Shown piece by piece: positions 1,351 through 7,446 of a stretch of DNA of 64,000 nt. Under the pieces are notes generated by a model. It was given only the letters and a program-made list of their open reading frames with translations, did no database searches and had not been told where the DNA came from. A program made the position numbers and the translations under genes. Each line of letters opens with the position of its first letter. Position 1 is the stretch's first letter. The stretch lies in sequence record DRR378314_434. The stretch is one strand, 5' to 3'.

Positions 1351-2466
1351 ATGACTTTTTCTGACCTCGGACTTTGCCCTGAAACCATTGCCGCCCTTAC
1401 ACGCCAAGGTTATACAGAACCAACGCCTATTCAGGAGCAAGCGATTCCGCCGATCCTTGCTGGTAAGGACGTAATGGCTGCGGCACAAACAGGGACGGGT
1501 AAGACCGCGGGCTTTACCTTACCGATTTTAGACATACTCAAAAGTAACGAGCGCGCAAAGGCGAACACGGCGCGCGTGCTTATTTTAACGCCGACTCGCG
1601 AATTAGCGGCTCAGGTGGGTGAAAACGTTGCGAACTTAAGTGCGGGTCTGCCACTGAATTACGTGGTGGCGTTTGGTGGTGTGAAAATTAATCCGCAGAT
1701 GATGAAGCTTCGCAAAGGCGTGGATATTCTGGTCGCAACACCGGGCCGTTTGCTGGACTTATACAAACAAAACGCGGTTCGCTTTCCTAAGCTAGAGGTG
1801 TTGGTACTAGATGAAGCCGACCGTATGCTCGACATGGGCTTTATTCACGACATTAAGAAAATTATTAAGTTATTACCAGCTAAGCGCCAGACACTGATGT
1901 TCTCGGCGACGTTTTCCGACGGCATTCGTACCCTGGCTAAAAGCTTGCTGAAAAGCCCGGTAGAAATTTCCGTAGCACCGCCCAACGCCACTGCCGAGCC
2001 TATTGAGAAAACAGTGTATGAAGTACAAAAAAGCCAAAAGCTGGGGCTGCTATTAAAGCTACTGAAAAGCCTTAACTTACCCCAGGTTCTTCTGTTTTCG
2101 CGCACCAAGCAAGGCGCAAACCGGTTAGTCAAACAGCTGGATAAAGCCGGCTTTCTGGCAGCGGCTATTCACAGCGCGAAAAGCCAGGGCTCCCGCACCA
2201 AAGCATTAACTGACTTTAAAAGCGGCAAAGTGCAGGTGCTTGTCGCCACCGATATCGCATCACGCGGCATCGACATTGAAAAGCTGCCGTACGTGATCAA
2301 CTACGACCTCCCCCACGTTGCGGAAGACTACATACACCGTATTGGTCGCACTGGCCGCGCAAGCCAAACCGGTCATGCTATATCGTTGGTAACGGACGAG
2401 GACGCTGAAGCGCTGAAGGCCATTGAGGATCTTATAGGGGAGCGGATTGAGCAGCTCGAGCTGTAA
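1351..2466 (+). CDS. rhlE: DEAD-box RNA helicase, RhlE-like (short C-terminus)
   Basis: Q motif PTPIQ, AQTGTGKT, PTRELA, DEAD, SAT, HRIGRTGR. Confidence 0.85.
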   Translation: MTFSDLGLCPETIAALTRQGYTEPTPIQEQAIPPILAGKDVMAAAQTGTGKTAGFTLPILDILKSNERAKANTARVLILTPTRELAAQVGENVANLSAGLPLNYVVAFGGVKINPQMMKLRKGVDILVATPGRLLDLYKQNAVRFPKLEVLVLDEADRMLDMGFIHDIKKIIKLLPAKRQTLMFSATFSDGIRTLAKSLLKSPVEISVAPPNATAEPIEKTVYEVQKSQKLGLLLKLLKSLNLPQVLLFSRTKQGANRLVKQLDKAGFLAAAIHSAKSQGSRTKALTDFKSGKVQVLVATDIASRGIDIEKLPYVINYDLPHVAEDYIHRIGRTGRASQTGHAISLVTDEDAEALKAIEDLIGERIEQLEL

Positions 2467-2509: not shown

Positions 2510-3502
2510 CTAAAGACCAGCGCGGATAGTTTTGCTACTTAACTCATGAGCATGATCTAAAGCATCAATAGCCGGTACTTCAATATTCGGAATAATTCCC
2601 GTCCTCTCCCAGTTTTTTTCAGTCGCCGTTATTATCGGTCTAAATAGTGAAATACGAAACGCAAGCGTGTCGGTAATTCGGCGTACTCCGACATAAAAAC
2701 CGGCACTGGCGGTGGTGTCACCAACCAACACGGCCTTTGAATTAGCCTGTAAAACACCGGCGAAAATTTCAGAAGCACTGGCTGTGTTGCGGCTGGTTAA
2801 TACCCAAACTGGAAATTCACCGCGAAAACCTTTGTGAGCTACGGTTTTGGATGCTGAAATCTCTGCGGTCCTCTCGCTCTTAGAATTAAGCACATACCAA
2901 AGGGGTGTTTCGTCGGGCAAAAAATAGCTCAACATGTACTGAACTAAATCGGGCGAACCGCCAACGGTATCTCGCAAATCAATGATGATGCCGTCACTCT
3001 GCTCCAGAAAGTTAAAAGCTGCGTCAACGGCGTCCCTGGCCTGCTTGTCCGGCGAAAACTTATTAAACTTCAAATAGCCAATGTTACCGCTCAGGTAACG
3101 CACTTCCTCTAACCCATAGTTATTGGTTAACTTCCCTTCTTTATGGGTCAATATATGGGTAATTTCTTCGTCTGGGTTAACGGTATACAAACTTAGATGG
3201 TTATCGCCCGTAACTGCTCGTAAATCTTGTCCCAATACGTGCGCGAAGTCATCAAGAGACGTCAGCGAATCGTACTGTCCCAACTCTAGCTTGTTTAGAA
3301 ATAACGCCCTTAACTCGGGAACCACTTCCGGTTCTATGTAATTGGCCTGCATAACATCGAACGTTTTAGTCATCAGCTGACGAACATGTTTTGGCGACAG
3401 GTTGTTCTCATCTGCCTGAGAAATTTCCGAATTCGACAGTAGAGAAATAAGCAAAAGTAGCAGAGCAATAAGTCTGCAAGGTTTCAGTAAAATACTTTTC
3501 AT
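2510..3502 (-). CDS. Secreted S41-family peptidase
   Basis: Signal peptide; IGYLKFNKF, IIDLRDTVGGS, TASASE, GIIPNIEV motifs; start set at ATG 3502, 6 nt after SD AAAGGT. Confidence 0.85.
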   Translation of the reverse strand: MKSILLKPCRLIALLLLLISLLSNSEISQADENNLSPKHVRQLMTKTFDVMQANYIEPEVVPELRALFLNKLELGQYDSLTSLDDFAHVLGQDLRAVTGDNHLSLYTVNPDEEITHILTHKEGKLTNNYGLEEVRYLSGNIGYLKFNKFSPDKQARDAVDAAFNFLEQSDGIIIDLRDTVGGSPDLVQYMLSYFLPDETPLWYVLNSKSERTAEISASKTVAHKGFRGEFPVWVLTSRNTASASEIFAGVLQANSKAVLVGDTTASAGFYVGVRRITDTLAFRISLFRPIITATEKNWERTGIIPNIEVPAIDALDHAHELSSKTIRAGL

Positions 3503-3508
3503 AAGTTT

Positions 3509-3593
3509 ACCTTTAAAATCCATTAGTAAGGGCTGGCTTCAACCAGTCCAGTTTTCGTTATTCGTTTAGGAACTAATGAATTCAGATAAAGGC
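3509..3593 (-). promoter_or_regulatory. Predicted mRNA hairpin sequestering the SD of the S41 peptidase gene
   Basis: mRNA arm GCCUUUA-UCU-GAAUUCAUUAGU (3593-3572) pairs with ACUAAUGGAUUU-UAAAGGU (3527-3509): 19 bp including 3 G:U pairs, with a 3-nt bulge. Confidence 0.7.
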
Positions 3594-3986
3594 GTTTTTT
3601 ATTTTGAATTGCATGCCAACGTCTTTCCACCCGGATAGATGAAAACGACTTGATGGCTTTATTAAAAACCAATCAGTAAGAATAGGTTCGGTGAGCAAAT
3701 AAATATTAGCAACGGCAACGCTGAACTTAGTTTCATCAACACGCTCAAACTGCCAGTTTGGCGACTGTTTATGGTGTTCAAATTGACTCGCGCTTGAGTA
3801 TGGTGAAGCCGAGACAGCAGTGTTGTCATATACCTGGGACGTAATAGACTTATCGGCTACAACGAACTGAGTATTTGTAGTCGAGTCAGGGTTACTGAAA
3901 AACAGCCAGCAGAACACGCACAGCATTATCGCCGTAATTGTGATTTTTGCAGTCTGAAAGGCTTGTTTTTTGGCCGCATCAACCAT
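3582..3986 (-). CDS. Putative VemP-like exported leader / translation-arrest peptide
   Basis: N-terminal basic plus hydrophobic segment; C-terminus FHLSGWKDVGMQFKIKNAFI aligns without gaps to the VemP arrest segment HRIxGWKETNAMYVALNSQF; TAATG-coupled to the upstream gene. Confidence 0.65.
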   Translation of the reverse strand: MVDAAKKQAFQTAKITITAIMLCVFCWLFFSNPDSTTNTQFVVADKSITSQVYDNTAVSASPYSSASQFEHHKQSPNWQFERVDETKFSVAVANIYLLTEPILTDWFLIKPSSRFHLSGWKDVGMQFKIKNAFI

Positions 3987-4720
3987 TAACGTTTCTCACA
4001 CCCCCGTCCTTTCACATAGCTCTCCACAGCGCTGTTAATTTCGTCTTTAAGCCACGCAGGTCCGTAGTCCGTCATATCGTTATGCCGGGATTCTGGTATT
4101 TTCTTAACGCATATACCGTATTTCTCACTCTCTTGCTGTGACGGCAACACCCCGTCGTCTGCAGGGTAATCGCTGCCGCGAATTGAGAGCACACCAATAT
4201 CCTTATTGCGGGGAAGAGGAACGCGCCGGTGGTCAATCGTAATAACAGTTTCTATGTAATCCTTGCTTTCATTCGCAAGCCAGGACGAGATATCGCCGCC
4301 GTTTGAGTGGCCAATCAGCAGCAAGTCATTAAAATTGTATTTCGGGTAAGTTGGCTCGAGGTTGTGCTTAACGAAATCCAGCGTTTTAGCGCCCCTGCTC
4401 CAATTTTCGCTTCTGGTTTCATAAAGATCACCCGATACAGACAGCGCAGGATCGCTCTCTAGCTCATGGCCAATAGCCACAACCATATAACCCAACTGGT
4501 TTAGCTGCTTAGATAAAAAACTGTACTTGGTATGCGAAACTCCGTAACCAGCACTAAGAAAAGCTACCGAACATTTTTGAGCTTCACTACACTGTTCTTC
4601 AGAAGTGGGATACGAGATTTGTATAGGAATATTTCTGTCTCTGAACTCATCGTAAATCGTGTTGTTGGCAAAGCTAAATGAGCTGAACAATAAGCCTGCG
4701 AGTAATATGAGGAATCTCAA
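3986..4720 (-). CDS. Secreted alpha/beta hydrolase
   Basis: Signal peptide, GHSNGG nucleophile elbow, C-terminal His (SRHND). Confidence 0.8.
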   Translation of the reverse strand: MRFLILLAGLLFSSFSFANNTIYDEFRDRNIPIQISYPTSEEQCSEAQKCSVAFLSAGYGVSHTKYSFLSKQLNQLGYMVVAIGHELESDPALSVSGDLYETRSENWSRGAKTLDFVKHNLEPTYPKYNFNDLLLIGHSNGGDISSWLANESKDYIETVITIDHRRVPLPRNKDIGVLSIRGSDYPADDGVLPSQQESEKYGICVKKIPESRHNDMTDYGPAWLKDEINSAVESYVKGRGCEKR

Positions 4721-4827
4721 ATTATAGTCCTTTACGATTTGATTTCGAGTTCTCTAACTGTACTACGATTTAAAATCTATGTCTGCTTATCGCAGGGACG
4801 CTGCTCCCGGAAACATAGACGTTACAC

Positions 4828-5634
4828 TTATAATTTGCCTAAAAGCTTAATCAATTCATGCAGCACAAGTTCAGGCTCATCGATCTGAACAAAATGGCCG
4901 CTATTCTCTGTTAGGACAGCTTCACCTTGTGGGAACTGATTCACCCACTCGCTTTGATATTGTCCCCACAGTTCACGACCTCGCGCCGTCTCAAACGCAT
5001 TTGACGGTTGTTCTGCCACCTTAACACCTGCTATCAAGGTGACAGGTATATCACCAATCTCTGAAAAACCTACAGCCTCAGATTTATCCCAAATCACATC
5101 CAAAAAGCACCATTTCCCCTCGCCCATCGCGTAATCGTTCTTTTTAATTGCATCGATTTCATCCTGGCCACCTGAGGGATTTAGCTCTGTGACGATATCA
5201 ACATCGCGAGGGTTTGCAGGATCAATCATAAGTAATGCCGCAACGTCGCCCTTATATTTAGCAGCAAAGTTTCTCGCTGTTACTCCACCAAGAGAATGAC
5301 TCACATAAACGAAAGGTCTGTCTATATTCAACTTGGTAAGCAACTGGTCAACTTCATTCACGTAGTCTGAAATATTCCGCTGTCCTGTGCAGGGGTCGGA
5401 GTTACCCTCACCCAGCCGGGAAAACCTTATGCCGGTTATTTCCTCTGGCAAATCACTCCAAATTGAGTCCCAGCCTGCCATTCCGGACAACGCGCCCGCA
5501 TCAAACAGAACAACTGTGTCACCACCTGCTTTTATCTCATACTCGATACGACCGCCATCCACTTCTATCATGGATGATGCACCTGCCTGAGCGCTTAGAA
5601 AGATAAAAAGAAAAAGACTTATTAGTTTTTGCAC
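4828..5634 (-). CDS. Secreted alpha/beta hydrolase
   Basis: Signal peptide (AQA/GA), SHSLGG, SGHFVQIDEPE. Confidence 0.8.
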   Translation of the reverse strand: MQKLISLFLFIFLSAQAGASSMIEVDGGRIEYEIKAGGDTVVLFDAGALSGMAGWDSIWSDLPEEITGIRFSRLGEGNSDPCTGQRNISDYVNEVDQLLTKLNIDRPFVYVSHSLGGVTARNFAAKYKGDVAALLMIDPANPRDVDIVTELNPSGGQDEIDAIKKNDYAMGEGKWCFLDVIWDKSEAVGFSEIGDIPVTLIAGVKVAEQPSNAFETARGRELWGQYQSEWVNQFPQGEAVLTENSGHFVQIDEPELVLHELIKLLGKL

Positions 5635-6495: not shown

Positions 6496-7446
6496 TTATT
6501 CTGCCTTAGGTTCTCCCGTTATCCAGGCGTTTATCTCTTTATACATTAGACCTTGCGAAAACGGTAAACCGTGGTAATCATCATAAATAACCAGCTTATG
6601 GGGATGACTAATATCGGATAACTTATCCGCTAAGATCTTTGCTTGCTCCACCGAAACCCTTTCATCCTTGGCTCCGTGAAGTATGAGGATAGGTAATTCA
6701 TCAGGCAGCTCATCTAACCAATAAACTACTGAGCGCTTCCTTAATTCCGACTCTTTGTTACTCGTGAAACTGGGGACTCTATAATCGAAGACCTTTTCCA
6801 TTTCAGGCCTTTCTTCAATTGTTTTGAATAAATCCGAGGGGGCACCAAGAACCGTCAATGATTTTATATTGCTCAGTTCTTTTAGTGATATAAAAGCCGA
6901 CATTGCTCCCCGACTAAACCCAACCATATGAATTTGGTTTTCATCTACGTATGGTAACTGAGAGGCTAGCCGAACAATATTAATAACGTCTTTCACATCG
7001 CTTCCGCCAAACTCATCAACACTCTCGCCCGGTCCATCAGTTAACTCCATTCCACCTCTGTATTGAGTGGCTAAAACAGCAACTCCCATTTCTGCTATAG
7101 GTTTCAAATGCAGGAAAATACTGGAGTAGTTTAGAGACCCAAAGCGGCCATTACCTCCCCGATTGAAAATGACCACGGGAACTTTCTCGTCGTTCTCGAT
7201 TTTCGGAGTTAACAGTATTCCGCCAACAGGATACTGGCCGCTTTGGTAGACAATGACCTTACAGGTAAAATTAGCTTTTAAATCCAGGAACTCTTTTTTG
7301 TTTATTCTTGAGTGCTTGGCCTCTTCATAAGTATCCCCGAGGCACTTTTTTTCTCTAAGAATATCGCCAGATTCATTCGCCAATGAGCTGTCTGAAAATA
7401 TTAACGGAATAAATATTAAAGCTAATTTTGTGATGTTCCCTATCAT
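6496..7446 (-). CDS. Secreted S9/prolyl-oligopeptidase-family hydrolase
   Basis: Signal peptide, FNRGGN, GFSRG, LHGAKDERV, terminal His. Confidence 0.8.
   Translation of the reverse strand: MIGNITKLALIFIPLIFSDSSLANESGDILREKKCLGDTYEEAKHSRINKKEFLDLKANFTCKVIVYQSGQYPVGGILLTPKIENDEKVPVVIFNRGGNGRFGSLNYSSIFLHLKPIAEMGVAVLATQYRGGMELTDGPGESVDEFGGSDVKDVINIVRLASQLPYVDENQIHMVGFSRGAMSAFISLKELSNIKSLTVLGAPSDLFKTIEERPEMEKVFDYRVPSFTSNKESELRKRSVVYWLDELPDELPILILHGAKDERVSVEQAKILADKLSDISHPHKLVIYDDYHGLPFSQGLMYKEINAWITGEPKAE

Follow-up and report, generated by a model that had tools for sequence, protein, structure and literature searches.

A VemP-type leader upstream of an S41/IRBP-like gene: a candidate export monitor re-targeted outside the Sec machinery

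Introduction

All described bacterial export-monitoring arrest peptides (SecM, VemP, MifM, CliM, LudP and the RAPP group) were found or deliberately sought upstream of sec or yidC genes. Does a leader of this kind also control a gene outside the localisation machinery? The question is raised by a stretch of 64,000 nucleotides of sequence record DRR378314_434 (hereafter the window), in which an open reading frame (ORF) of 134 codons, ORF134, precedes a gene of the S41 peptidase family. A first-pass annotation had described the pair as a candidate VemP-like arrest-peptide system controlling a secreted S41 peptidase rather than secDF. VemP itself was long described as restricted to Vibrio (available parts of Su 2017 and Kolar 2022). 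The survey of Fujiwara 2024, which reported 339 VemP-like sequences, was confined to ORFs lying ahead of sec and yidC genes, and its main text contains neither "protease" nor "peptidase". Our literature searches found no paper describing a VemP-type leader ahead of a non-Sec gene, in line with the earlier suggestion that an S41-type target class is undescribed for this family.

We found that ORF134 belongs with the VemP-type leaders by profile comparison, that it is paired with the S41 gene, that its tail is constrained as a peptide, and that a covarying helix masks the Shine-Dalgarno sequence of the S41 gene at the predicted stall site. We give a probability of about 60% to the reading that ORF134 is an export-monitoring arrest peptide unmasking the S41 ribosome-binding site, i.e., a diverged VemP lineage re-targeted to an S41/IRBP-like gene.

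Results

ORF134 and the gene it precedes

The two genes, and the parts of the leader used below, are the following:

3582..3986, minus strand: ORF134, VemP-family leader and candidate monitor, 134 residues, ATG start (homologues and profile homology)
3897..3947, minus strand: putative N-terminal hydrophobic export or anchor segment of ORF134, about residues 14-30, ITITAIMLCVFCWLFF (inspection)
3747..3800, minus strand: conserved mid block of ORF134, Y63-F80 (SSASQFEHHKQ..W), 53-70 residues ahead of the predicted P-site
2510..3502, minus strand: exported single-domain S41-family (IRBP-like) protein, 330 residues, the presumed regulated gene (Pfam)

ORF134 reads from 3986 to 3582 on the minus strand, and its TGA stop occupies 3584-3582. 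It has a basic N-terminus followed by the hydrophobic stretch, a Ser/Thr-rich middle and a conserved C-terminus ending in FHLSGWKDVGMQFKIKNAFI (longer tail stretch, SRFHLSGWKDVGMQFKIKNAFI). The S41 ATG with the better Shine-Dalgarno sequence (AAAGG) is at 3502, exactly 79 nucleotides past the leader stop; an alternative in-frame ATG at 3523 has none. The layout first described for this locus (134 residues, an export-like N-terminus, a low-complexity middle, the tail and the 79-nucleotide gap) was correct in every detail. By inspection, and without the use of a signal-peptide predictor, a hydrophobic N-terminal segment was seen in all of the 27 aligned S41-linked leaders, so ORF134 appears to have the N-terminal signal or membrane anchor expected of a monitoring substrate. 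The mid block is also shared: in the alignment behind the S41-linked profile described below, F69 and Q74 never vary and A66 and H71 reach a conservation of 90% or more, and each of A, F, H and Q is kept in at least 80% of the 27 leaders. The resulting A..F.H..Q pattern is specific to the S41-linked subfamily; the secD-linked consensus at this place is PDYxLxxEL.

In some S41-linked leaders (L011, L013, L070, L074-L079, L081) we observed a second hydrophobic stretch of about 18-20 residues between the A..F.H..Q block and a PW[FY] motif, which stops about 35-40 residues before the C-terminus; the Idiomarina leader has it in a weak version only. The leaders with this stretch may cross the membrane twice, in which case insertion into the membrane would release their arrest.

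Homology to VemP-type leaders

Full-length homologues of ORF134 exist. All those with a name, and the five genome loci as well, belong to Idiomarina (I. abyssalis, I. rhizosphaerae, I. aquatica or Idiomarina sp.), and the window is accordingly assigned to this genus. Searches of Pfam and NCBIfam gave no family match for ORF134, which is uninformative because these libraries carry no VemP model: the 27 secD-linked leaders matched no VemP or other relevant family there either, their single Pfam match being a stray phage family hit by one member.

We therefore rely on three profiles, built from 14 S41-linked leaders (A4), 27 secD-linked leaders (A5) and Idiomarina sequences only (A1). The hhalign comparison of A4 with A5 gave a probability of 98.9% (E = 3.9e-17, 72 columns). 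The match begins about 55 residues ahead of the motif, i.e., it extends well past it, as expected for a common VemP lineage and not for likeness in a short motif. The secD-linked profile A5 matched the PDB entry 5nwy_s, "VemP nascent chain" (E = 0.0046). Searched against five Idiomarina genomes, A5 had a single match, the ORF134 homologue in genome G230 (E = 6.8e-5), and found no secD-linked VemP-like copy in these five. When the S41-only profile A4 was searched against 177635 PDB sequences the VemP chain ranked first, if weakly (E = 0.44), and the narrower A1 did not reach it at E up to 10. The matches of A4 with A5, of A5 with the PDB chain and of A5 with the G230 homologue indicate that ORF134 is, at the level of sequence profiles, a homologue of VemP-type leaders and not a convergent motif, in support of the VemP-like character proposed from its tail.

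Linkage to the S41 gene and distribution

A six-frame search of 301 genomes of the window's GTDB family with A1 gave 10 matches: seven before an S41 gene, one (L008) before another exported protein, one (L015) before SecD, and one spurious. The Idiomarina locus L006 was counted as S41-linked by its sequence. A wider profile matched 59 of 401 genomes of the order, and the 58 matches that were fetched comprised 54 SecD-linked leaders, three S41-linked ones and one (L039) that has no downstream ORF and could not be classed. The matches L014 and G501 have internal stops and were taken as spurious. The downstream gene matched Pfam Peptidase_S41 in 8 of 10 tested loci.

The pairing was also seen from the side of the target. 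A profile of the S41 protein matched 88 of the 301 genomes at E ≤ 1e-30, frequently with several paralogues each. We looked for leaders at 30 of the S41 loci, about 90 weaker matches (E = 2.0e-74 to 2.9e-31) falling outside this check. Among the best 26 loci (E ≤ 2.6e-83), 25 are preceded by an ORF of 128-171 residues with a VemP-like tail, and the sole exception, L072, has no room for a leader; the next four loci fetched (E = 2.4e-79 to 9.4e-73) have no VemP-like leader upstream. All searches together sampled about 700 distinct genomes of one order and placed the S41-linked arrangement in 16 genera, 15 in the window's GTDB family and one in a second family. The profile search with tabulation of downstream genes, a check suggested by the first-pass annotation, thus recovered an S41-linked clade as well as the secD-linked leaders. 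Its claim that the leader is tied to an S41 peptidase rather than to secDF stands for the linkage (25 of 26 loci, 16 genera), but a classical protease as the target is doubtful (see below). VemP in the strict sense lies immediately upstream of secD/secF; here the downstream gene is Peptidase_S41.

Leader and S41 gene co-occur in the same one of 12 Idiomarina genomes, and both are absent from G001, the nearest of the genomes searched (50% shared words). Hence, the pair behaves as one accessory unit within this genus. Two genera show both arrangements, with the VemP-like ORF before S41 in some species and before secD in others; five genomes from two genera (G118, G247, G151, G228 and G071) have exactly one VemP-like ORF each. 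A maximum-likelihood tree of 44 leaders placed 14 of the 16 S41-linked rows on one side, with 4 changes of label vs. 14.2 when labels were shuffled; this tree is poorly resolved (20 of 41 inner branches open) and carries no order of events.

A few loci depart from the two common arrangements. The leader body of L058, from a metagenome contig, forms a clade with those of the secD-linked L015, L019 and L025 (four rows, 97% support in the Shimodaira-Hasegawa-like approximate likelihood ratio test) and has ..HNTNSSRLSGWKD in common with L019. From the tail (IYKIKNALI) through the spacer to the downstream gene, L058 is of the S41 type, like L016, and by sequence it looks like a recombinant in which the target was swapped at the arrest motif. 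The L008 leader (genome G132, 1495-1962, minus strand) reads RLTHNKQANLLYKIINAFD, with Asn in place of Trp, and keeps a helix masking the Shine-Dalgarno sequence (GCCUUUGA with UCAAAGGU). It precedes an exported protein of 250 residues with a weak match, below the cut-off, to Peptidase_MA_2 (E = 2.7e-4), and may represent a third target class. The L017/L057 locus is a decaying copy, with a tail frame-shifted relative to L016 (..KAKQKTP) and an S41 gene split in two (125 and 158 residues).

The leader tail compared with VemP

3585..3647, minus strand: putative VemP-like arrest motif, R114-I134 (alignment to PDB 5nwy_s; arrest as predicted)
3588-3590, minus strand: predicted P-site codon, F133 (VemP register)
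3585-3587, minus strand: predicted A-site codon, I134 (VemP register)

The VemP nascent chain in 5nwy_s has the sequence ...HFTSDHRISGWKETNAMYVAL. When W120 of ORF134 is placed on W143 of VemP the two tails align without gaps: S, G, W, K and N131/N154 are identical, and L/I, D/E and F/Y are conservative pairs. In this register H116 corresponds to R139, W120 to W143, K121 to K144, G124 to N147, F127 to Y150, N131 to N154 and F133 to Q156, and the stop is the second codon past F133, after I134. The gap-free alignment and the position of the stop had been given in the first-pass annotation and hold against the PDB sequence, as does the caveat that N147 and Q156 differ.

These positions matter in VemP. 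In the available parts of Su 2017 and Kolar 2022, R139, W143, K144, Y150 and N154 are residues contacting the tunnel, and the stalled state has Q156 in the P-site with Phe incoming, N154, S155 and Q156 being named. Replacement by Ala at 17 of the 19 positions of H138-Q156 weakens stalling, and K to H or R at K144 is the sole class of substitution reported there as tolerated. The C-terminal consensus of the family is RxxxWKxxNxxY (Fujiwara 2024, accessible text), and VemP homologues favour F or Y at the A-site (2026 preprint). Judged from its sequence, ORF134 could stall, if at all, at any of its last three codons.

Across homologues the core positions are occupied as follows (position relative to the Trp; 30 S41-linked leaders; 55 SecD-linked leaders):

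W-4: R in 18 (K in 4, H in 2); R in 55
W: W in 28; W in 55
W+1: K in 22 (H in 4, R in 3, Q in 1); K in 55
W+4: N in 24; N in 55
W+7: Y/F in 22; Y/F in 55

The 30 S41-linked leaders are not mutually independent, several coming from one genus; the secD-linked set consists of L015, L019-L045 except L039, and L092-L119. Conservation of the motif in homologues, another check on the original proposal, was thus found for W (28 of 30), K (22) and Y/F (22), but at a looser level than in the secD-linked leaders. The distance from the Trp to the C-terminus is 14-17 residues in 29 of the 30 S41-linked leaders.

The comparison of the window with I. aquatica shows how this tail is maintained. In 105-131, four of 27 residues have changed and 12 codons carry synonymous changes, against 35 changed residues of 74 in 31-104; no other part of the protein is conserved as well as the tail. 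Codons 132-134 are identical base for base. Given the few residue changes alongside 12 synonymous ones, the tail is constrained as a peptide, and its final three codons are also constrained as RNA. Between genera the last 6-8 residues vary (e.g., KIKNAFI, KAKLTYHA, CCKSQLYH, RQTSHSLSL), and they covary with the downstream Shine-Dalgarno sequence.

Two groups of variants were recorded beside this. In L082-L087 (one genus), L080 and L083 the tail reads RL[GSA]LW[HRQ]DANL, with H, R or Q at the position of K144. In L018/L069 and in L076 the Trp is replaced (SDGRTSNLQY and SCFKISNLQY, respectively); the pairing that masks the Shine-Dalgarno sequence persists in L018 and is missing from the L076 fold.

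An RNA helix over the S41 Shine-Dalgarno sequence

3572..3593, minus strand: 5' arm of the helix, comprising the A132 and F133 codons, the first base of I134 and the 10 nucleotides directly after the stop (minimum free energy fold, RNAalifold)
3530..3549, minus strand: inner G+C-rich hairpin closing the helix loop (minimum free energy fold, RNAalifold)
3509..3527, minus strand: 3' arm of the helix, including the Shine-Dalgarno sequence AAAGG at 3510-3514 (minimum free energy fold, RNAalifold)

The region 3470-3660 folds at -46.2 kcal/mol (z = -3.2), a value reached by none of 200 shuffles. In this fold the S41 Shine-Dalgarno sequence, UAAAGGU, is paired at long range with GCCUUUA, which comprises codons 132 and 133 plus one base of codon 134, the first. 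The bases directly upstream of the Shine-Dalgarno sequence pair with the 10-12 nucleotides past the leader stop. RNAalifold on 15 Idiomarina sequences gave 24 pairs with a few single breaks and five compensatory pairs (2 of 17 in the outer helix, 3 of 7 in the inner hairpin), all five from the I. aquatica lineage and each counting as one event. Other genera have the same helix design in different letters: UUACCUCU with AGAGGUAA in L007, CCUUUGUUUAA with UUAAACGAAGG in L012, and ACCUUAUUGA with UUAAUAAGGU in L016. Most other genera also show an inner hairpin in their folds, though with another sequence (uncounted), and the stop-to-ATG spacer measures 47-84 nucleotides across S41-linked loci. 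A search of 3300-4100 against Rfam found no family, only a chance microRNA match (E = 0.61). On the plus strand, the inner hairpin at 3530-3549 followed by AGTTTTCGTT scores as an intrinsic-terminator-like site.

We measured the match between arms as the duplex energy of the leader tail (from 3 nucleotides before to 27 after the predicted P-site) with the ribosome-binding site (-20 to +3 of the start). Over 13 divergent loci, own duplexes averaged -10.0 kcal/mol vs. -5.8 for swapped ones, none of 20000 permutations being as good, and 8 own pairs ranked first by both row and column. The same windows in 14 loci found independently via S41 gave -9.3 vs. -5.7 kcal/mol, again with 0 of 20000 permutations; L081, L076 and L077 were poor. 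At least four bases of the ribosome-binding site pair within -6 to +20 nucleotides of the predicted P-site in 26 of 27 minimum free energy folds. When the bases up to 15 nucleotides past the P-site were held single-stranded, the pairing probability of the Shine-Dalgarno sequence dropped in 25 of 27 loci, and in the window its mean fell from 0.87 to 0.54. In silico, then, the downstream Shine-Dalgarno sequence is sequestered and would be opened by a stalled ribosome, which is the arrangement of a monitoring substrate.

The downstream protein

The S41-family protein starts with MKSILL... and has a signal-peptide-like N-terminus. It matches Peptidase_S41 (PF03572, E = 9.8e-27) and Peptidase_S41_N (PF11918, E = 1.3e-9), which places it in the S41 family; the Pfam scan gave no match to a PDZ domain. 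It has no Sec or YidC domain and is thus not a component of the pathway that the leader would monitor. Among solved structures it is closest to IRBP/RBP3 (the four-module protein matches at E = 2.5e-75, and one whole module at 2e-24), with Ctp proteases next (about 1e-10). Kalluraya 2023 (PMC10120077) trace vertebrate IRBP to such single-domain bacterial S41 genes and report that the bacterial proteins retain the Ser.

We aligned leader-linked S41 proteins with the Prc-like and Ctp-like proteins of Idiomarina G230. The Ser and Lys were located via the Prc-like protein, and we take them to be catalytic by analogy to E. coli Tsp. The Ser position holds Ser in the window protein and in L012 (TASASE), and Gly in L011 and L018. 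At the Lys position (TFGKG) each of the four leader-linked proteins has either Ala or Val, Ala in the window, and none of the six S41 proteins compared for this residue has the Lys, so the Ser/Lys dyad of active Ctp/Tsp-type enzymes is not there. By sequence, the target is best called an exported S41/IRBP-like protein, and the label "protease" is premature. A predicted complex of this protein (29-330) with ORF134 (31-134) scored 0.00, in a run that used no alignments and in which the partner fold was uncertain, and this score has no bearing on binding.

Upstream context and transcription

3986..4720, minus strand: exported alpha/beta-hydrolase-like gene, the upstream neighbour
4721..4748, minus strand: weak sigma-70-like promoter match, TCGAAA-16-TATAAT (10/12), directly ahead of the hydrolase gene

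The ORF134 ATG overlaps the stop of the hydrolase gene (TAATG), and the two genes are probably in the same operon. The hydrolase gene is also upstream of the leader in G230 and is found neither in I. aquatica (L005) nor in other genera; it is an Idiomarina-specific context. Three exported alpha/beta-hydrolase-like ORFs stand in tandem upstream (3986-4720, 4828-5634 and 6496-7446, minus strand). Promoter-like sites are not in excess in the region (6 vs. a shuffle mean of 5.8). Four RNA-library runs (one sample and study) contain contigs of a 90-95% identical relative, some of which reach across from the leader into the S41 gene (3020-3787, 3444-3635); contigs are no proof of transcription, the library may include DNA, and these contigs were not used as evidence.

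Discussion

How would such a leader work? In the arrest reading, which we favour, the N-terminal hydrophobic segment would bring the nascent ORF134 chain to the Sec translocon. With ..[R/H]LSGWKD..QF...N.. in the exit tunnel the ribosome would pause on one of the last three codons, F133 being in the P-site if the VemP register applies, and pulling on the exported part of the chain would normally end this pause fast. The paused ribosome would cover codons 132-134, the stop and about 10 nucleotides beyond, i.e., the helix 5' arm that hides the S41 Shine-Dalgarno sequence. Because this arm would be occupied, a long pause, brought about by poor export or pulling, would turn on synthesis of the S41-family protein. 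We infer the arrest, its release by export or pulling, and the effect on S41 translation from these features.

Several observations weigh against this reading. The window tail is unlike V. alginolyticus VemP at 11 of the 19 positions of H138-Q156. Set against RxxxWKxxNxxY it reads HxxxWKxxGxxF: W and K are identical, H and F conservative, and N is replaced by G, so the window departs from the consensus of VemP in the strict sense, although other Idiomarina homologues have the R. The aromatic residue of ORF134 comes one codon before the A-site position of VemP homologues. The motif core is looser in the S41-linked leaders, two of which lack the Trp altogether, whereas the secD-linked ones keep all five positions in 55 of 55; the latter were gathered with motif-weighted profiles, and the contrast may be partly one of ascertainment. 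In the RNA, the duplexes of L009, L011 and L013 are individually no better than shuffles, and the L076 fold lacks pairing of the ribosome-binding site. A ribosome that plainly terminates would open the helix too, and the RNA evidence fits coupling equally well. Apart from arrest, control of a protease is also put in doubt: the target is probably not a classical protease, since the catalytic Lys is missing in all six S41 proteins aligned for it, the Ser is missing in two of these, and the closest structures are non-catalytic IRBP modules.

The most serious rival, which we hold to be unlikely but well worth keeping in mind, is plain translational coupling. ORF134 would be a former VemP-type leader that no longer stalls; each finishing ribosome would melt the helix, giving a fixed ratio of the two proteins and no sensing. 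The position of the 5' arm suits this, as it lies at or just past the stop in most loci, within reach of a terminating ribosome, and so does the relaxed arrest core of the S41-linked leaders (R 18, W 28, K 22, N 24 and Y/F 22 of 30, vs. 55 of 55), with the window having G at the N147 position and H at that of R139. Yet, coupling leaves three things unexplained: the constraint at the protein level on residues 105-131, upstream of the helix, where synonymous sites are saturated; the agreement of the conserved residues with the tunnel contacts of VemP; and the steady distance of the Trp from the C-terminus (14-17 residues in 29 of 30 leaders).

Less probable still, and in our view improbable, is that ORF134, once mature and anchored in the membrane, acts as partner, inhibitor or substrate of the S41 protein with its tail as a periplasmic recognition tag, a role that could coexist with arrest. 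It would account for the strict linkage of the two genes and for an A..F.H..Q block specific to S41-linked leaders. S41 proteins classically read C-termini, and the hydrophobic C-terminus of ORF134 may resemble Tsp-type substrates. However, the final 6-8 residues change from genus to genus, and do so along with the downstream Shine-Dalgarno sequence, and the S41 protein has neither a PDZ domain match nor the catalytic Lys. That ORF134 is not a real gene, or resembles VemP by chance, would fit the lack of a Pfam or NCBIfam match but is refuted by its full-length homologues with constraint at the protein level and by the strong A4/A5 profile homology to VemP-like leaders.

If ORF134 does act as an arrest peptide, what would it sense? 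To our knowledge, a monitoring substrate always regulates the very protein that frees it from arrest by acting on the nascent chain. On this ground, the leader might sense its own downstream product and not SecDF, the S41/IRBP-like periplasmic protein gripping or processing the emerging chain; we regard this as a rather doubtful, speculative extension. The A..F.H..Q block, which would be near the periplasmic mouth of SecY at arrest, is an example of a possible contact site. Were this true, the S41/IRBP-like protein would be a new periplasmic factor acting on translocating polypeptides, of the ancestor type of vertebrate IRBP and under homeostatic feedback, and VemP-type sensors would be modular and re-targetable, as the MA-peptidase-like target of L008 and the chimeric leader of L058 hint.

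The arrest reading itself has wider implications. A clade of VemP homologues, present in 16 genera of two GTDB families, is tied to a different exported gene with the same design for masking the Shine-Dalgarno sequence, which suggests that the control exerted by sensors of the VemP kind is not limited to secretion components. Should the arrest be real, the secretion-monitor regulon reaches beyond the translocation machinery, and the uncharacterised single-domain bacterial S41 proteins, proposed by Kalluraya 2023 as the source of vertebrate IRBP, gain a regulatory context. In addition, the variants that occur in nature (K to H/R, N to G/S, Y to F/C, loss of W) provide a ready mutational series for VemP stalling.

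Comparison with known systems

The single-domain bacterial S41 "IRBP homologues" (Kalluraya 2023, PMC10120077) are proteins of the same type as the target, and the window protein keeps their Ser position; it differs by the absence of the dyad Lys, and the accessible part of that paper mentions neither a leader peptide nor regulation. Classical coupling through a hairpin that occludes the Shine-Dalgarno sequence shares with this locus an upstream frame whose translation to the end frees the downstream ribosome-binding site, but it needs no conserved nascent-peptide motif, and such a motif is conserved here.

SecM-secA and MifM-yidC2 follow the same logic, with an exported or inserted leader, a C-terminal arrest (predicted in our case) and the unmasking of a downstream ribosome-binding site. 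Their sequences are unrelated to ORF134, and in all described cases their targets belong to the localisation machinery being monitored. The secD-linked VemP-like leaders, from other families of the same GTDB order, are much closer, forming one family with ORF134 by profile and sharing the core of the tail. They differ in keeping R, W, K, N and Y/F in 55 of 55 and in preceding SecD, and the five checked genomes hold one kind each.

A further relative is VemP-secD2/F2 of V. alginolyticus. Its leader is a homologous exported protein with ..SGWK[DE]..x..[YF]...N.. at an equal distance from its end, and the Shine-Dalgarno sequence of the next gene is likewise folded into a stem, which would be opened by a ribosome stalling where the leader ends. 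R139, N147 and Q156 of VemP are H, G and F in the window, and the short hydrophobic segment with Arg-85 in the middle of VemP has an A..F.H..Q block in its place. The two also differ in what the leader would control: here, the target is an exported S41/IRBP-like protein and not a component of Sec.

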